DNA of 64,000 nt, from positions 66,832 to 130,831 of the forward strand of contig CAYSZK010000001.1 of the NCBI GenBank assembly GCA_964435495.1, in the 5' to 3' direction. The position numbers and the translations under genes were made by a program. The notes beneath the pieces were generated by a model. It saw only the letters and a list, made by a program, of their open reading frames with translations. It was not told the origin of the DNA and did no database searches. This DNA comes from an uncultured Verrucomicrobiales bacterium. GTDB lineage: Bacteria > Verrucomicrobiota > Verrucomicrobiia > JADLBR01 > JAIBCM01. Shown one piece after another: positions 42,873 to 49,408 of the stretch (position 1 is the stretch's first letter; the number at the start of each line of letters is the position of its first letter).

Positions 42873-43655
42873 ATGAGATGCGGCGTGATTCTTGGATTGT
42901 GTGCGGCGGCGGCGGCCGGGGTGGCGGGACGGGCGCAACCGGTGGAGGCGCCCGCGGTGAAACAGACCACTCTGCAATGGTTCGGGCACGGGTTTTTCGT
43001 GGTGTCATCGGTGACGGGCGTGCGGGTTGCGATCGATCCGTTTGACCAGCGCCAGATTCCCGCGCCCGGCCCGGCGCGGGTGCCGGCGGACGTGTTGTTG
43101 GTGACGCATGAGGCCACCGACGCGAGCGTGACCGACCGGATTGACGGGAGCCCGCAGATTTACCGGGGATCAACGGGGGAAGGTTTGAACCGGGGCAGCG
43201 GAATGCTTTTCAAGGGATCACGGTCCTATCGGAGCCGGGACCGGAACGCGTCGTTGGGGCGAAACGTGATATATTCGTTCAAATTGGACGGGGTCCGCTT
43301 CGCGTTTTTGGGCAATCTCGGGCATCCGCTGAACACCGAGGAGGCGGCGGCGGTGGGAACCAGCGAGGTGGTGGTCGCGCCGGTGCCGCGGGAGGGGGGC
43401 ATGACGCGCGGGGACGTGTTGGCGACAGCGAAGGTGCTGGGCGCGCGCGTGCTGATTCCGGCGCGGTACAAGACCGCGTGGACGGAGAAGGCCGGGGATG
43501 TGGCGATGGGAACGCTGGACGGGTTGCTGGAGGGGCCGGAGAAGGTGGTGCGGCTGGACTCTGACATTGTGGTGTTGCAGGCGCGGGAGTTGCCGGAGCA
43601 ACTGGAGATATGGGTGCCGGCGGCGCCTGGGGGCGCGGCGGAGGTGTTGCCGTGA
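42873..43655 (+). CDS. Exported metallo-beta-lactamase-fold protein with degenerate metal site
   Basis: Signal peptide; WFGHGFF, IDPF, THEATDA, FLGNLGH and IPARY. Confidence 0.8.
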   Translation: MRCGVILGLCAAAAAGVAGRAQPVEAPAVKQTTLQWFGHGFFVVSSVTGVRVAIDPFDQRQIPAPGPARVPADVLLVTHEATDASVTDRIDGSPQIYRGSTGEGLNRGSGMLFKGSRSYRSRDRNASLGRNVIYSFKLDGVRFAFLGNLGHPLNTEEAAAVGTSEVVVAPVPREGGMTRGDVLATAKVLGARVLIPARYKTAWTEKAGDVAMGTLDGLLEGPEKVVRLDSDIVVLQARELPEQLEIWVPAAPGGAAEVLP

Positions 43656-44923
43656 AGGTGCTGGTGGTGGGGTCAGGCGGGCGCGAGCACGCGTTGTGCT
43701 GGAAGCTTGCCCAAAGCCCGCGGGTGAAGAGGATGTACTGCGCTCCCGGCAATCCGGGAACGGCAAAGCTGGGAACGAACGTGCCCATCAAGGCCGATGC
43801 GATTGGCGAACTGGCGGCTTTCGCGAAGCGGGAGGAGATTGGTTTGACGGTGGTTGGGCCGGAGGCGCCGTTGGTGGCGGGGATTGTGGACGAGTTCCGG
43901 CGGGAGGGGTTGCGAATTTTCGGGCCGGACCGCGCGTCGGCGCGTTTGGAGGGGAGCAAGGCGTTCGCGAAAGAGGTGCTGGTGCGCCACGGCATCCCAA
44001 CGGCGAGGGCGGGCGTGTTTCGGGAGAGCGGGGAGGCGCACGCGTTCAGCCAGAAACTGGGGTGCCCGCAGGTGGTCAAGGCGGATGGCCTGGCGGCGGG
44101 CAAAGGGGTGGTGGTGGCGGAGACTCCTGGGGCGGCGGCGGCGGCGATCCACAGCGCGCTGGAATTGGGGGCGTTTGGCGCCGCGGGCCGGTCGGTGGTG
44201 ATTGAAGAATTTCTTGATGGCGAAGAGGCTTCGGTGCACGTCTTGGTGGCAGGGCGGGAATATCGGCTGCTGCCGGGGTCGCAGGACCACAAGCGCGTGG
44301 GAGACGGCGACACGGGCCCGAACACGGGCGGGATGGGGGCGTATTCGCCGGCGCCGGTATTGTCGGAGGCGATGAGGGCGCGGGTGGAAGCCGAAATTTT
44401 GAAACCGCTGCTGGACGGGCTGGCGGCGGACGGCATGGAGTACCGGGGGATTTTGTACGTGGGGGTCATGGTGACGGCGGAGGGGCCGAAGGTCCTGGAG
44501 TTCAACTGCCGGTTTGGAGACCCGGAGACCCAGGTGATCCTGCCGCTGGTCAAAACGGACCTGGTGGATGCGATGGAGGCGGTGATAGACGGAAGGCTGG
44601 GGACGTGCGATTTGCGGCTAGGGGCCGGGCACGCGGTTTGCGTGGTCATGGCGGCGGGCGGGTATCCGGGGCCCTACGAAACCGGCACGGCGATCATGGG
44701 GATCGACGAGGCGGAAAGGCTGGAGAACGTGCGGGTTTTCCACGCGGGGACCGCGGAGGCGGGCGGGGGGCTGGTGACGGCGGGGGGGCGGGTGCTGGGG
44801 GTGACGGCGTTCGGGAGCAGCTTGCCCGAAACGTTGCGGCAGGTTTACGCGGCGGTGGAGCGGGTGCGGTTTGAAGGCGCAATTTTTCGGCGGGACATTG
44901 CGGCGCGGGCCTTGGCGCGCTAG
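43652..44923 (+). CDS. purD: Phosphoribosylamine-glycine ligase
   Basis: GSGGREHAL, KADGLAAGKGV, GPNTGGMGAYSP and EFNCRFGDPE. Confidence 0.97.
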   Translation: MKVLVVGSGGREHALCWKLAQSPRVKRMYCAPGNPGTAKLGTNVPIKADAIGELAAFAKREEIGLTVVGPEAPLVAGIVDEFRREGLRIFGPDRASARLEGSKAFAKEVLVRHGIPTARAGVFRESGEAHAFSQKLGCPQVVKADGLAAGKGVVVAETPGAAAAAIHSALELGAFGAAGRSVVIEEFLDGEEASVHVLVAGREYRLLPGSQDHKRVGDGDTGPNTGGMGAYSPAPVLSEAMRARVEAEILKPLLDGLAADGMEYRGILYVGVMVTAEGPKVLEFNCRFGDPETQVILPLVKTDLVDAMEAVIDGRLGTCDLRLGAGHAVCVVMAAGGYPGPYETGTAIMGIDEAERLENVRVFHAGTAEAGGGLVTAGGRVLGVTAFGSSLPETLRQVYAAVERVRFEGAIFRRDIAARALAR

Positions 44924-44931
44924 GATACCGG

Positions 44932-46116
44932 ATGGCAGTGCGCTGGCTGAGCATCGTTTGGGCGGCAATCCTCGCGGGAGCGGCCTGCCAAGGTTCCCCG
45001 TCGGCGGAGGAGGTCTGGTCGGCGATCCGGGATTTGTATGTGGACCCGGGTTCCCTGCCGGAGCAGCGGGTGCGGGAGGCGGTGGACACGGGGGAGGTGG
45101 GGTTGCTTGGGACGGGGGTTGAAATCGGAGGCACCAACCAGGCGGCGGCGCGGCTGGACGGTCCCGCGTGGCGGACGGAGTTGGTGGAGGGGCGGTATTT
45201 ATTTGTGCGCGTGCGGAATCTTGCGAAAGGCGAGGCCGTGGCGCGGCTTTCGGCGGCGGTGGCGAGCAACCTTGCGCCGGCGTGCGGGGTTGTTCTGGAC
45301 TTGCGCGGCTGGAGGCAACACGAGGCGTTTGAGGCGGGCGCGGAATTGACGGCTCTGCTGGGCGGCGGTGTCGGCGGCGAGTTATTTTCCCTGGTGGATG
45401 CCGAAGGCCGGGCGTCGGCGGTCCAGGCGGTCGGCGGGGCGGCGGGCGGGGCGGCCCATTCGCGGAAACCGCTGGTGGTGCTGGTCAACGGCCAGACGTC
45501 GGGCGTGGGGGAAGCGGTGGCGGATGGGCTGCGGAATCTTCGCGGGGCGGTGGTGGTGGGCGGCCCGACGGCGGGCAAGTCCGCGGTGTTTGCGGAGCGC
45601 ACGCTGAAGGACGGCCGCGTCCTGCGGGTCGCGGAAAAGCGTGTGATCGCCAGGGGAGGGCGCGCGTTGTTTCCCAATCCGGTGACGCCGGATGTGGCGG
45701 TGGAGGATGTGGGGGCGGACGATGCGGCGGCGATGGTGCGGGCGGCGGAAACGGGTGTGGCGGAGTTTGTCACGCCGGTGGAGCCGACAGACCGGCAGGA
45801 TGAAGCGGCGCTGGTGCGTGGGGAGATGCCGGAGGTGGACGAATTGCGGCGCCGGCTTGAGGACGCGGAGAAGCGCGGCAAGGAGGGGCCGGCGCCGGAC
45901 GGCGGGACGAACGCCCCGGCGGCGTCCGAGGGACGGGCACCGGCGCTGGTGGACGAAACCTTGGCGCGGGGTTTTGACATCTTGCGCGCCGTGGAAGCGT
46001 TGGCGCCGCGGCCCGCGAAAGGGCCGGGAACGGTGGCGGTCGCCAAAGGCGGGGACGGGGCGGGGGACGCGCCGCCGGCGCCGGCGAAACCGGAGGGAGC
46101 GGAAGACGGGCCATGA
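44932..46116 (+). CDS. S41 peptidase-like exported protein (no PDZ, catalytic Ser apparently replaced)
   Basis: [30 protein letters not shown] and PDVAV. Confidence 0.75.
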
Positions 46117-48293
46117 AGAGGGTTTTGTTTGTGTGCACGGGCAACATCTGCCGCAGCCCGATGGCGGAGGGCTTGTTGCGGCTTGCGATGGGGGGGGAGG
46201 CGGAGGTTTCCAGCGCGGGGCTGGGGGCGGCGCCTGGGTATCCGCCGAGCGCGCATGCGGTGGCGGCGATGGAGGAAGTGGGGGCCGACATCCGGGGCAT
46301 CCGCAGCCGCATGGTGAGCCCGGAACTTGTGGCGGCGGCGGACGCGGTGTTCGTGATGACCTACGGGCATCTGGACTTGATGCTGATGCTGTATCCGGCG
46401 GCGGCGGACAAGGTCTTCCTGGTTCGGGAATTTGAGCCGGGCCTGCGTTCGGACGAACGGGAGATCGCCGACCCGATCGGGGCGTCTCTGGAGGTTTACC
46501 GGCGGGCGCGGGACGAGATACGGTCGGCGATTCCGTCGATCCTGGGATATTTGCGCGGGGAGCGGGCGCCCGCGGAGGAAGTCATGAAGGACCACCACAG
46601 CAGGATCGAGATTGCCATCGGCGCCGACCACGGCGGCGTGGAATTGAAAAAGGCGCTCAAGGCGCAATTGGACAGCGGCGGCTACCGCGTGCGGGATGTC
46701 GGGGCTCATTCGGCGGATTCGGTTGATTACCCGGATTACGCGCGGGAGGTGGCGCGCGCGGTCGCGTGCCGGGAAGCGGACTTTGGAATTCTGGTGTGCC
46801 GGACGGGCATCGGGATGAGCATGGCCGCCAACCGGTATCCGGGCGTGCGCGCGGCGCTGGTGGACAACGCGGCCACCGCCAAGATTAGCCGCGAGCACAA
46901 TGACGCGAACGTGTTGTGCCTGGCCGGGGACCGGGTTTCGGCCAGGGACGCGGAGGAGATCGTGAAAGTGTGGCTTGCGGCGGCGTTTGCCGGCGGGCGG
47001 CACGAGCGGCGGGTGGACAAGATGGACGCGCTGGCGGCGGAGGAAGCCGGGTGCGGGGGGCCGGGATTGGCCGGGACCGACCCGCGCGTGTTCGCGGCGG
47101 TCCAGCTCGAGCATCTGCGGCAATCGGAGAATATCGAACTGATCGCGTCGGAGAACTTCGCCAGCCGGGCGGTGAGGGAGGCGCAGGGCTCCTGCCTGAC
47201 CAACAAATACGCCGAGGGGTATCCCGGCAAACGGTATTATGGCGGGTGCGAGCATGTGGACGTGGTGGAGAGCGTCGCCATCGAGCGGGCGCTCCAGCTT
47301 TTTGGCGCAGAACACGCGAACGTCCAGCCGCACTCCGGCAGCCAGGCGAACATGGCCGTCTATTTCTCCGTGCTCAAGCCTGGGGACAGGATTCTCACGA
47401 TGAACCTGGCGCACGGCGGCCACCTGACCCACGGGCACCCGAAGAATTTCTCCGGGCAACTCTACGAGGTCGTGCATTACGGCGTGAGCGAGGGCACGGA
47501 GACCATCGATTACGACGCGTTGGAGGCGCAGGCGCGGGAGGCGCGCCCGAAAATGATCACGGCCGGGGCGTCGGCCTATTCGCGGATCATCGATTTCGAG
47601 CGGATGCGCCGGATCGCGGACGGCGCGGGGGCGTATCTGTTCGTGGACATGGCGCACATCGCGGGGCTGGTGGCGGCGGGCCTGCATCCGTCGCCGGTGC
47701 CGTACGCTGACTTTGTGACGACCACGACGCACAAGACCCTGCGCGGGCCGCGTGGCGGCTTGATCCTGTGTCCGTCGAAGCATGCCAGGGAGATCGACTC
47801 GCTGATGTTCCCCGGCGTGCAGGGCGGGCCGCTGATGCACGTGATCGCGGCGAAGGCCGTCTGTTTCCTGGAAGCGCTGCGGCCGGATTTCAAAGCGTAC
47901 CAGGAACAGGTGCTGCGCAACGCGCGGGCGTTGTGCGAGGGCATGAAAAAGAACGGGTACCGCATCGTCTCGGGCACCACGGAAAACCATGTGATGCTCG
48001 TGGACGTCCAGCCTCTGGGAATCACCGGCAAGGACGCCGAGTCGGCCCTGGACCGCGCCGGGATCACGGTGAACAAGAACGCGATTCCGTTCGATAAACA
48101 GAGCCCGTTCAAGGCCGGCGGCATCCGGCTGGGTTCCCCGGCGGTGACAACGCGCGGGTTCAAGGAGGAGGAGATGTTCGAGACGGCGGACCTGATCCAC
48201 GAGGCGTTGCGGGGGCGGAACGATCCCGCGAAACTGGAGGCGGTGCGGGCAAGGGCGCGCGCGTTGACGCGGCGCTTCCCCCTGCCGGCCTAG
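46113..48293 (+). CDS. glyA: Triple fusion: LMW protein phosphatase + ribose-5-phosphate isomerase B + serine hydroxymethyltransferase
   Basis: CTGNICRS and DPIG; GADHGG, SVDYPD, CRTGIGM, HNDANVL; [28 protein letters not shown], all in one frame. Confidence 0.95.
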
Positions 48294-48296
48294 GCC

Positions 48297-48518
48297 ATGA
48301 CCCCTCTGGAAAAGCGCGCCGCGCAGGCCGGGAAAATCCTGGAGTCCCCGCGCGCCTACAAAATTTGCGAGGGGTGCGGGTCCATCGTGGCCATCAACAC
48401 GGTCATCTGCCCGGTTTGCAAGGCCTATCGGTTCGACGAAGACCCGGACCGCGTGTGCGAGCAGGCGCGCGAGCTGGGGTCCCGCGAGGCCCGCACAATC
48501 ACCGAGGACGATCTCTGA
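48297..48518 (+). CDS. Small zinc-ribbon protein
   Basis: CEGC...CPVC; 3-bp gap after glyA and 11-bp gap before purC. Confidence 0.75.
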   Translation: MTPLEKRAAQAGKILESPRAYKICEGCGSIVAINTVICPVCKAYRFDEDPDRVCEQARELGSREARTITEDDL

Positions 48519-48529
48519 GCGGGGGTGGG

Positions 48530-49408
48530 GTGAACGCGCCGCTGCTGGCCATCGACCTGCCTGGGACGCCCAAGGTGCGGTCGGGAAAGGTGCGGGAGCT
48601 CTTTGATCTTGGCGACTCGCTGTTGATGGTGGCCACCGACCGGATTTCCGCCTTCGACGTGATTATGGCGGAGGGCATTCCCGACAAGGGGCGCGTCCTG
48701 ACGGGCATCTCCCGGTTCTGGTTTGAGGCGACGCGGGAGTGGATGCCCAACCACGTGCTGGACTGGGAGGCGCCGCCGGGGCTTGGCGAAGGGCGCCTCA
48801 CGGGGCGCGCGATGCGGGTCCGCAAGGCGCGCCCCCTTCCCATCGAATGCGTCGTGCGCGGCTACCTGGCGGGCTCGGGCTGGAAGGAATACCGGGAACA
48901 CGGCACGCTCGCCGGCGCCGCGCTGCCGGCGGGAATGCGCGAGAGCGAGCGCCTGCCCGGACCGGTGTTCACTCCGGCAACCAAGGAGGACAGCGGCCAC
49001 GACATCAACATCACGCGCGAGGAAGCGGCGCGCATTGTCGGGCGGAAGGTGTTTGATGAAGTGGAGGCGGCGAGCCTGCGCCTGTATGCGTTTGCGCAAG
49101 GCCACGCCGCGGCGCGGGGAATCCTTGTCGCGGACACAAAATTCGAGTTTGGCCTGGACGGGGACCGCGTGATCCTGATCGACGAGGTCCTGACGCCGGA
49201 CTCGTCGCGGTTCTGGCCCGCGGACGGGTACGCGCCCGGCCGGGGCCAGAAGAGCTTCGACAAACAGTTTCTCCGCGACTACCTGGAATCGATACCGTGG
49301 AACAAACAACCGCCGCCGCCGCCCCTGCCGCCGGAGGTGGTTGCGGGGACGCGGAGGAAGTATCTTGAAGCGTTCCGGCTGATCACGGGCCGGGACCTGG
49401 ACGCGTAG
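48530..49408 (+). CDS. purC: SAICAR synthase
   Basis: SGKVRELF, DRISAFD, DTKFEFG, DEVLTPDSSRFW and DKQFLRD. Confidence 0.96.
   Translation: MNAPLLAIDLPGTPKVRSGKVRELFDLGDSLLMVATDRISAFDVIMAEGIPDKGRVLTGISRFWFEATREWMPNHVLDWEAPPGLGEGRLTGRAMRVRKARPLPIECVVRGYLAGSGWKEYREHGTLAGAALPAGMRESERLPGPVFTPATKEDSGHDINITREEAARIVGRKVFDEVEAASLRLYAFAQGHAAARGILVADTKFEFGLDGDRVILIDEVLTPDSSRFWPADGYAPGRGQKSFDKQFLRDYLESIPWNKQPPPPPLPPEVVAGTRRKYLEAFRLITGRDLDA

Follow-up and report, generated by a model that had tools for sequence, protein, structure and literature searches.

A phosphatase-RpiB-serine hydroxymethyltransferase fusion downstream of purD, probably an ordinary member of a conserved verrucomicrobial family

Proteins that join a low-molecular-weight (LMW) cysteine phosphatase, ribose 5-phosphate isomerase B (RpiB) and serine hydroxymethyltransferase (SHMT) have been described in Verrucomicrobiota. 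Minf_1669 of Methylacidiphilum infernorum V4 has this three-domain composition (Hou et al. 2008, Biol Direct 3:26, PMC2474590). For Limisphaera, a 2026 paper (PMC13608581) mentions 'ribose 5-phosphate isomerases with an additional SHMT domain'. No biochemical study of the fusion was found in the literature, nor any measured activity, protein product or oligomeric state. The fusion gene studied here lies in a 64-kb window (the whole stretch of DNA that was analysed) and has domain composition and phylum in common with both published cases, to which it is likened by their published descriptions. The window comes from a hot-spring metagenome and has 67% G+C, which resembles Limisphaera, thermophiles of hot springs with 65-66% G+C. 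In Bacillus, the same three functions occur in identical order in what we take to be the gene string ywlE - ywlF(rpiB) - (ywlG) - glyA, but as separate genes rather than as one polypeptide.

Two partial versions of the architecture are also available for comparison. RpiB-SHMT fusions, found in Akkermansia, Lentisphaerota, some Nitrospirota, Acidobacteriota and Deferrimicrobium, have the same RpiB-to-SHMT junction and domain order. They lack a covalently attached phosphatase, and in Lentisphaerota the phosphatase gene is encoded immediately upstream. LMW phosphatase-SHMT (LMWPc-SHMT) fusions of Udaeobacter, Terrimicrobiaceae and other Chthoniobacterales, together with triple fusions whose RpiB is degenerate, share with the window's protein the invariant catalytic residues of phosphatase and SHMT, an Ile or Val in the P-loop and a common verrucomicrobial SHMT clade. 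RpiB is excised or degenerate in those proteins, whereas it is fully intact in the window's fusion. The features of the locus are the following:

43610..44923, + strand: purD (GAR synthetase), identified with Pfam; likely true start GTG 43652, with GGAGG before it
44932..46116, + strand: S41-peptidase-like gene (PF03572, 51.7 bits), immediately upstream of the fusion
46113..48293, + strand: fusion gene LMW phosphatase-RpiB-SHMT, 726 aa in one open frame, ATG start, TAG stop
46122..46535, + strand: LMW cysteine phosphatase domain, residues 4-141 (PF01451), P-loop C8TGNIC13R14S15, D120 in the DPIG loop
46536..46610, + strand: linker 1, residues ~142-166, holding Met158 (ATG 46584) and GGAGGA at 46574-46579
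46611..47024, + strand: RpiB domain, residues 167-304 (PF02502, TIGR01120)
47025..47072, + strand: linker 2, residues ~305-320, differing in length and sequence between relatives
47073..48290, + strand: serine hydroxymethyltransferase domain, residues 321-726 (PF00464, NF000586), PLP lysine K541
48297..48518, + strand: zinc-ribbon-like ORF of 73 aa (CxxC...CxxC) matching no Pfam family, starting 3 nt past the fusion stop
48530..49408, + strand: purC (SAICAR synthetase; PF01259, 246.5 bits), inferred start GTG 48530

A reading made from the sequence only, without database searches (hereafter the sequence-only reading), had recognised three intact catalytic signatures in a single 726-aa frame, and Pfam, NCBIfam and direct inspection of the residues all agree. 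The LMWPc profile (PF01451) aligned with residues 4-141 at 95.4 bits (cutoff 23.2; profile positions 1-141 of 144), LacAB_rpiB (PF02502) with residues 167-304 at 180.5 bits (1-138 of 138) and SHMT (PF00464) with residues 321-695 at 552.6 bits (cutoff 27; 3-399 of 399). The NCBIfam rpiB equivalog TIGR01120 scored 166.7 bits against a cutoff of 138.65, and the SHMT model NF000586 scored 627.9 bits against 335 (profile 1-403 of 404). The gene has the architecture of Minf_1669, its three domains following the expected order within a single unbroken ORF, and its SHMT falls inside the verrucomicrobial clade. It is very probably an ordinary member of a conserved verrucomicrobial three-enzyme fusion, with three predicted activities and a presumed single translation product. 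An AF2 monomer model of the fusion (pTM 0.63) neither favours nor rules out a fixed arrangement of the modules; pLDDT in linker 2 is 62-79.

The RpiB domain aligns over its full length with the Thermotoga maritima structure 1o1x (E 2.8e-42) and with C. thermocellum RpiB (3he8). All nine catalytic or phosphate-binding residues that were checked are present (D172, H173, C229, T231, H262, N263, R296, H297 and R300), with the signature spacing C229-x-T231. In E. coli RpiB, Cys66 is the catalytic base, His99 opens the ring and His10, Arg133 and Arg137 bind phosphate, with Thr68 also part of the site (PMC4783025). Each has its counterpart in the fusion, namely C229, H262, H173, R296, R300 and, for Thr68, T231. 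The phosphatase Cys, Arg and Asp are invariant among relatives. In the SHMT domain, K541 (in TTTHK), presumably the Schiff-base lysine, and H407, D512, H515, E347 and R672, which we take to be the other active-site residues, are present and invariant in 120 relatives. Judged by these residues, each of the three modules appears capable of catalysis. The phosphatase module would act as a Cys-dependent phosphomonoesterase, RpiB would interconvert ribose 5-phosphate and ribulose 5-phosphate, and SHMT would convert serine and tetrahydrofolate into glycine and 5,10-methylene-THF. No paralogue encoding a second Rpi or SHMT was detected within the 64-kb window.

The architecture is widespread in the phylum. 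The best 120 database matches (NCBI, JGI, ENA and Logan) were all proteins of about 720 aa with the same three domains and 60-69% identity, the nearest being proteins of Verrucomicrobiae MAGs (69% identical). The sequence-only reading had suspected that similar fusions were already annotated in Verrucomicrobiota, as both these matches and the printed record attest. At the ORF level, 80 species loci comprised 9 triple fusions, 30 LMWPc-SHMT fusions, 12 RpiB-SHMT fusions and 29 loci where the genes are separate but adjoining and keep that order. The SHMT tree groups the Verrucomicrobiota fusions in a single clade (SH-like support 98), within which the window's protein belongs to an eight-member clade with RpiB intact throughout (support 97). 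Verrucomicrobiota normally inherit these genes in fused form, and the fusion is already known. Outside the PVC group, RpiB-SHMT fusions occupy scattered positions in the SHMT tree and seem to have arisen independently.

Among relatives, the RpiB module is the unstable part. It is degenerate in ~66 of the 120 clusters, which keep the fold but have Asp in place of the catalytic Cys and have lost the phosphate-binding His and Arg. LMWPc-SHMT proteins (569-601 aa) have RpiB cleanly excised, and no recognisable RpiB remnant was found in their linkers. Decay has occurred at least two times and in-frame excision at least two to three times. As a sequence feature the fusion is ordinary for its phylum, and its main importance concerns annotation. 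Most of the best 120 matches are named 'ribose 5-phosphate isomerase B', and single-enzyme names such as this or 'glycine hydroxymethyltransferase' conceal the other two activities; where the RpiB module of a relative is dead, the annotation also wrongly credits the genome with an Rpi.

LMW phosphatase, rpiB and glyA occur as separate adjoining genes in Planctomycetia and Omnitrophota, and rpiB and glyA are adjacent in Desulfobacterota, Ignavibacteriota and others. An ancient string of a YwlE-like LMW cysteine phosphatase, rpiB and glyA very probably gave rise to the fusion by losing the stops between its genes, after which the single gene was passed on vertically. The derivation from an old gene string, implied when the sequence-only reading tied the fusion to ywlE-rpiB-glyA, is borne out by the separate-gene order in Planctomycetia and Omnitrophota.

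The fusion start overlaps the stop of the S41-like gene (ATGA), and translation from ATG 46113 would be coupled to that gene. Of the genes upstream of the fusion it is the best conserved, being present also in loci L081, L083, L084, L085, L002 and L015. Downstream, the zinc-ribbon-like ORF is a conserved partner: ORFs of 73 aa, 60-66% identical to it, occupy the same place in L083, L084 and L085. The fusion is indeed flanked in the window by purD upstream and purC downstream, as the sequence-only reading had noted, but its framing of the locus as a purine operon holds in part. An upstream purD is shared by the close relatives L083 and L084 and by L085, L015, L024 and L028, while only 3 of the 80 species loci have purD within 5 kb. 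purC was found within 5 kb of the fusion relatives in none of the 80 species loci, nor in L081, L083 or L084. The adjacency of purC is local to the window and was discarded as a conserved trait. The fusion would force 1:1:1 expression of its modules and in this lineage probably shares a transcription unit with purD; glycine, the substrate of PurD, would be made by SHMT. Given this shared unit and stoichiometry, its probable function is to provide glycine, C1 units and pentose phosphate to biosynthesis in a coordinated way. Any coupling between the modules is putative.

The losses of RpiB among relatives raise the question of why a YwlE-like phosphatase stays fused to SHMT across Verrucomicrobiota. 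Where RpiB decays or is excised, the phosphatase remains joined to SHMT and the two active sites are retained, which hints that the phosphatase is functionally tied to SHMT and is not a passenger. The replacement of a P-loop Thr by Ile or Val, specific to the SHMT-fused lineage, is part of the same pattern. The tie might take one of two forms. In the first, the tethered phosphatase would strip a regulatory phosphate from SHMT in cis. In the second, it would bind or hydrolyse pyridoxal 5'-phosphate (PLP) or a related phospho-metabolite, so that the state of the cofactor would be linked to one-carbon flux. This second form is proposed because PLP, the cofactor of SHMT, binds tightly and selectively to mammalian LMW-PTP. 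A neutral history would give the same pattern: after fusion, SHMT lacks its own start signal, and deletions survive only if they stay in frame. We regard a functional tie as a tentative and rather unlikely proposition; if true, it could amount to an unrecognised phosphatase-linked control of bacterial one-carbon metabolism.

Whether the gene has a second product was considered at ATG 46584. This in-frame codon (Met158) does follow GGAGGA (46574-46579), as the sequence-only reading had pointed out, the core GGAGG being separated from the ATG by 5 nt. Initiation there would yield an additional RpiB-SHMT isoform of 569 aa without the phosphatase. The 5-nt spacing is that of a canonical Shine-Dalgarno (SD) sequence, the site is the strongest SD-like one in the operon, and the likely purD start likewise uses GGAGG. 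Moreover, RpiB-SHMT proteins accompanied by a separate phosphatase gene in Lentisphaerota and some Verrucomicrobiota (L009-L011, L022 and L041) suggest that the shorter product would be viable. Nevertheless, the Met158 column is not conserved (mostly V, P, A, E or T), and any Met in the linker is present in only 24 of 120 relatives. At the DNA level, a GGAG-type SD with an in-frame start in the linker is absent from all 11 other triple-fusion loci inspected, L081, L083 and L084 among them. The + strand of the window contains GGAGG 351 times, and GGAGG-N5-ATG occurs eight times against an expectation of 3.6 +/- 2.05 (6 of 100 shuffles reached as many), a frequency near chance in a G-rich strand; one copy sits inside the SHMT domain, at 48164. 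The motif also corresponds to plain Ala-Glu-Glu-Val-Met codons, and AF2 places Met158 within a short helix (155-162). The isoform suggested by the sequence-only reading is thus not borne out, and dual output from this gene appears decidedly unlikely. An internal rpiB start kept as a relic of a pre-fusion ribosome-binding site is likewise unsupported by the 11 loci.

The phosphatase module carries the hallmarks of the LMW phosphatase superfamily, a P-loop C8-TGNIC-R14-S15 near the N-terminus and a general acid D120-P121. By overall similarity it belongs to the YwlE clade. Among solved structures it is closest to the YwlE arginine phosphatases from Geobacillus and Bacillus (4pic best; E 6.7e-28 to 1e-22), with 4egs also among the best matches. 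The module has in common with YwlE (PDB 4kk3, 4pic) the C-x5-R P-loop, the Asp general acid and a short, non-aromatic D-loop (DPIG, against DPFG). Both the nearest structures and the D-loop are as expected of a YwlE-type phospho-arginine (pArg) phosphatase, which would place RpiB and SHMT under pArg control. However, the pArg determinant of YwlE is the guanidinium-binding Thr at P-loop position 5 (Thr11), and its change to Ile lowers pArg activity and raises phosphotyrosine (pTyr) activity (PMC7772506), a rule derived from mutants of YwlE and Drosophila DARP and not from the fusion clade. Where YwlE has Thr11 (CTGNTCRS), the window's phosphatase has Ile12 (CTGNICRS), and 109 of 110 fused relatives have Ile or Val (75 I, 34 V and 1 T). 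In contrast, free-standing phosphatases adjoining rpiB-glyA have Thr or Ser in 8 of 8 cases, and Thr predominates in two-domain LMWPc-RpiB proteins (23 T and 2 S vs 7 I or V). It follows that the pArg-selecting Thr was lost specifically in the SHMT-fused lineage. Since Ile replaces this Thr, the substrate is probably not phospho-arginine. The assignment as a phospho-arginine phosphatase in the sequence-only reading fails on this residue; we consider pArg control of RpiB and SHMT very unlikely, and their placement 'under phospho-control' is speculation. Of the traits of classical pTyr LMW-PTPs of the Wzb, PtpA and ACP1 type, the Ile at position 5 is present, whereas the D-loop DPIG lacks the aromatic residues of DPYY. 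The Wzb and Etp equivalogs of NCBIfam scored 54 and 51 bits against cutoffs of 243 and 247, respectively. A thioredoxin-coupled arsenate reductase (ArsC) was rejected: residues 1-157 contain only two cysteines, C8 and C13, with no pair of the Cys82/Cys89 type, and TIGR02691 scored 50.4 bits against a cutoff of 174.3.

Although the source is a metagenome assembly and the read-level data are contigs, an artefact in which missed stops or frameshifts falsely joined three separate genes is effectively refuted and has a negligible probability, since both junctions are identical in contigs of two different samples, the single-ORF architecture recurs in over 100 independent clusters and assemblies, among them the cultured Chthoniobacter flavus and complete MAG chromosomes, and the fusion is in print for Methylacidiphilum and Limisphaera isolates. 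The sequence-only reading had asked for a check for missed stops between the domains, and no hidden stops were found. The contigs compared were Logan assemblies of the two samples, which drop rare variants: those of one hot-spring run (X1) cover 45900-47848 and those of an independent hot-spring sample (X2) cover 46029-47236, in both cases crossing the two domain junctions with 0 differences and no indels or stops.

The fusion gene lies in a single open frame and encodes three full-length Pfam domains:

46113..48293, + strand: fusion ORF of 726 codons, ATG start and TAG stop
residues 4-141: low-molecular-weight phosphatase (LMWPc)
residues 167-304: LacAB_rpiB (RpiB)
residues 321-695: SHMT

The middle domain scores above the NCBIfam rpiB equivalog cutoff (166.7 versus 138.65) and the C-terminal domain far above that for SHMT (627.9 versus 335). 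The phosphatase signature (C8-TGNIC-R14-S and D120-P), the RpiB residues (D172/H173, C229-x-T231, H262/N263 and R296/H297/R300) and the SHMT PLP lysine (K541, in TTTHK) are all present, as the sequence-only reading of an intact triple fusion had claimed. The window originates from a hot-spring metagenome. The check for missed stops which that reading had proposed was made on assembler contigs, not raw reads: contigs from two hot-spring samples, X1 (window 45900-47848) and X2 (46029-47236), cross both domain junctions with zero differences and therefore indicate no missed stops. An AF2 model of the protein (60-sequence alignment; mean pLDDT 89.2, pTM 0.63) gives each of the three domains with confidence and, as a monomer model, does not fix their positions relative to one another; it argues neither for nor against inter-domain contacts. 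Linker 1 (phosphatase to RpiB) contains a predicted short helix at 155-162, and linker 2 (RpiB to SHMT) has a pLDDT of 62-79.

The best 120 matches among 5.8 billion protein clusters were all ~700-765 aa long, contained the same three Pfam domains and shared 60-69% identity with the query across 94-100% of its length. They were retrieved from NCBI, JGI, ENA and Logan assemblies, one being from the cultured Chthoniobacter flavus, and their database names, where given, are 'ribose 5-phosphate isomerase B' or 'glycine hydroxymethyltransferase'. The guess that such fusions were already annotated in Verrucomicrobiota was thus correct. The architecture itself is not new, having been described in print (Minf_1669 of Methylacidiphilum infernorum, Hou et al. 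2008; the Limisphaera paper, PMC13608581); to it the window contributes a further protein whose three modules are all intact. The pentose-phosphate reconstruction of the Limisphaera paper lists only RpiB, and our literature search found no biochemical study of the fusion.

Sampling a single genome from each species yielded 80 loci, each checked at ORF level:

LMWPc-RpiB-SHMT in one ORF: 9/80, Chthoniobacteraceae and other Verrucomicrobiota
LMWPc-SHMT in one ORF, without RpiB: 30/80, Udaeobacter and Terrimicrobiaceae
RpiB-SHMT in one ORF: 12/80, Akkermansia, Lentisphaerota, single Nitrospirota and Acidobacteriota loci and two Deferrimicrobium-group loci
separate adjacent genes in the same order: 29/80, Desulfobacterota, Ignavibacteriota, Planctomycetia and Omnitrophota

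The Lentisphaerota RpiB-SHMT loci have a phosphatase gene immediately upstream, and in Planctomycetia and Omnitrophota all three genes are separate. Searching residues 1-320 against 1.84 billion cluster representatives additionally retrieved many LMWPc-RpiB proteins of ~300 aa. Given these varied architectures, the gene string is old and fuses in every combination. One representative, P0204, is an unusual multi-copy protein of 1679 aa in which six distinct segments match the LMWPc-RpiB query, the best being its residues 874-1019.

In an SHMT-module tree (FastTree, 141 rows, local SH-like supports only), the verrucomicrobial fusions formed one clade (support 98), and the window fell within an eight-member clade (support 97) in which RpiB is intact in every member. 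About 66 of the 120 clusters (including P0030, P0032-P0034 and P0037-P0040) encode an altered RpiB: the catalytic Cys is replaced by Asp, His-Asn by Gln-His, and the phosphate-binding His/Arg are lost. These proteins form one large nested clade and a second small one. Their modules still match the RpiB fold at ~110 bits and are either structural pseudo-enzymes or carriers of a new activity. [quoted passage not shown] At the 30 loci (within L044-L080; Udaeobacter, Terrimicrobiaceae and other Chthoniobacterales) they are 569-622 aa long, keep the phosphatase P-loop CTGN[IV]CRS and DPIG loop intact, and show no RpiB remnant, as in a clean excision. Parsimony, from outgroup gene order, suggests that the triple fusion came first and RpiB decay or loss followed, the basal branches of the tree not being separated. 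In one Chthoniobacterales locus (L077, 4995-6714), LMWPc and SHMT are adjacent in different frames and their nearest relatives are LMWPc-SHMT fusions; either the gene has split secondarily or the MAG sequence contains a frameshift error.

The phosphatase C/R/D and SHMT active-site residues are invariant across the fusion relatives, RpiB-altered and RpiB-less proteins included. The persistence of a predicted-active phosphatase on SHMT after RpiB loss is suggestive of a functional tie between the two. Mammalian LMW-PTP is inhibited tightly and selectively by PLP (PMC4480753, citing Zhou and Van Etten 1999). PLP is also the cofactor of SHMT, and these two roles may hint at the same tie. A neutral view, in which the link is retained without any functional tie, fits equally well: SHMT lacks its own start signal once it is fused, and a deletion would then be viable only if it kept the reading frame. 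A functional phosphatase-SHMT tie seems unlikely.

Among solved structures, the phosphatase domain is closest to the YwlE arginine phosphatases from Geobacillus (4pic, E 6.7e-28) and Bacillus and to a Thermoanaerobacter homologue, 4egs, mislabelled 'RpiB'. This 180-aa chain was deposited as 'Ribose 5-phosphate isomerase RpiB', yet its whole length aligns to the LMW phosphatase domain, not RpiB; the name seems to have been transferred from genes that are fused or adjacent. Phospho-arginine specificity is determined by Thr at P-loop position 5, and its mutation to Ile reduces activity on pArg while increasing that on pTyr (PMC7772506, which reports Fuhrmann et al. 2013); most pTyr LMW-PTPs have Ile there (PMC7772506). 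Residues at this position were:

window: Ile12
110 triple-fusion clusters with intact N-terminus: I 75, V 34, T 1
30 LMWPc-SHMT loci: all I or V
8 free-standing copies beside rpiB-glyA: 5 T, 3 S
32 LMWPc-RpiB two-domain proteins: 23 T, 2 S, 7 I/V

The loss of Thr is therefore specific to the verrucomicrobial lineage in which the phosphatase is fused to SHMT, an association confounded with phylogeny. The D-loop of the window's phosphatase, DPIG, lacks the aromatic residues of classical pTyr enzymes, and ArsC-type extra cysteines are absent from the domain. Because of these features phospho-arginine is an unlikely substrate, and the phospho-arginine reading, at odds with I/V in 109 of 110 triple-fusion clusters, is not upheld.

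An RpiB-SHMT isoform initiated at Met158 had also been proposed. The in-frame ATG at 46584 and the GGAGGA just 5' of it (46574-46579) do exist, with genuine motif and spacing, and form the operon's strongest SD-like site. However, the Met158 column is mostly V/P/A/E/T, any Met occurs in the linker of just 24 of 120 relatives, and none of 11 other triple-fusion loci inspected as DNA (close relatives L081, L083 and L084 included) combines a GGAG-type SD with an in-frame linker start. GGAGG-N5-ATG was observed 8 times where 3.6 +/- 2.05 were expected, a count reached in 6 of 100 shuffles; another of these copies, at 48164, falls within the SHMT domain and is made up of Glu-Glu-Glu-Met codons. The + strand of the window (67% G+C, with a G-rich coding strand) contains 351 GGAGG and the - strand 45, so SD-like strings inside genes are common and weak as start signals in this genome. 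The isoform is quite improbable.

The purine-gene context was only partly borne out. Upstream of the fusion, purD and an MBL-fold gene recur in L083 and L084, but purD lies within 5 kb of the string in only 3 of 80 species loci and purC in none, its adjacency being local to this window. As SHMT makes glycine, the substrate of purD, linking the fusion to purine synthesis makes sense in this lineage, not as a general property of the fusion. The immediate neighbours are:

44932-46116, + strand: S41-peptidase-like gene, the most constant upstream neighbour
48297-48518, + strand: 73-aa zinc-ribbon-like ORF (CEGCG...CPVCK), starting 3 nt after the fusion stop codon

The fusion start overlaps the stop of the S41-peptidase-like gene (ATGA). 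This neighbour recurs in L081 (4725-5921), L083 (4912-5934), L084 (2890-4161), L085, L002 and L015. The 73-aa ORF matches no Pfam family; 73-aa CxxC...CxxC ORFs, 60-66% identical, occupy the same place in L083, L084 and L085, and the ORF seems to be a small, conserved partner gene.
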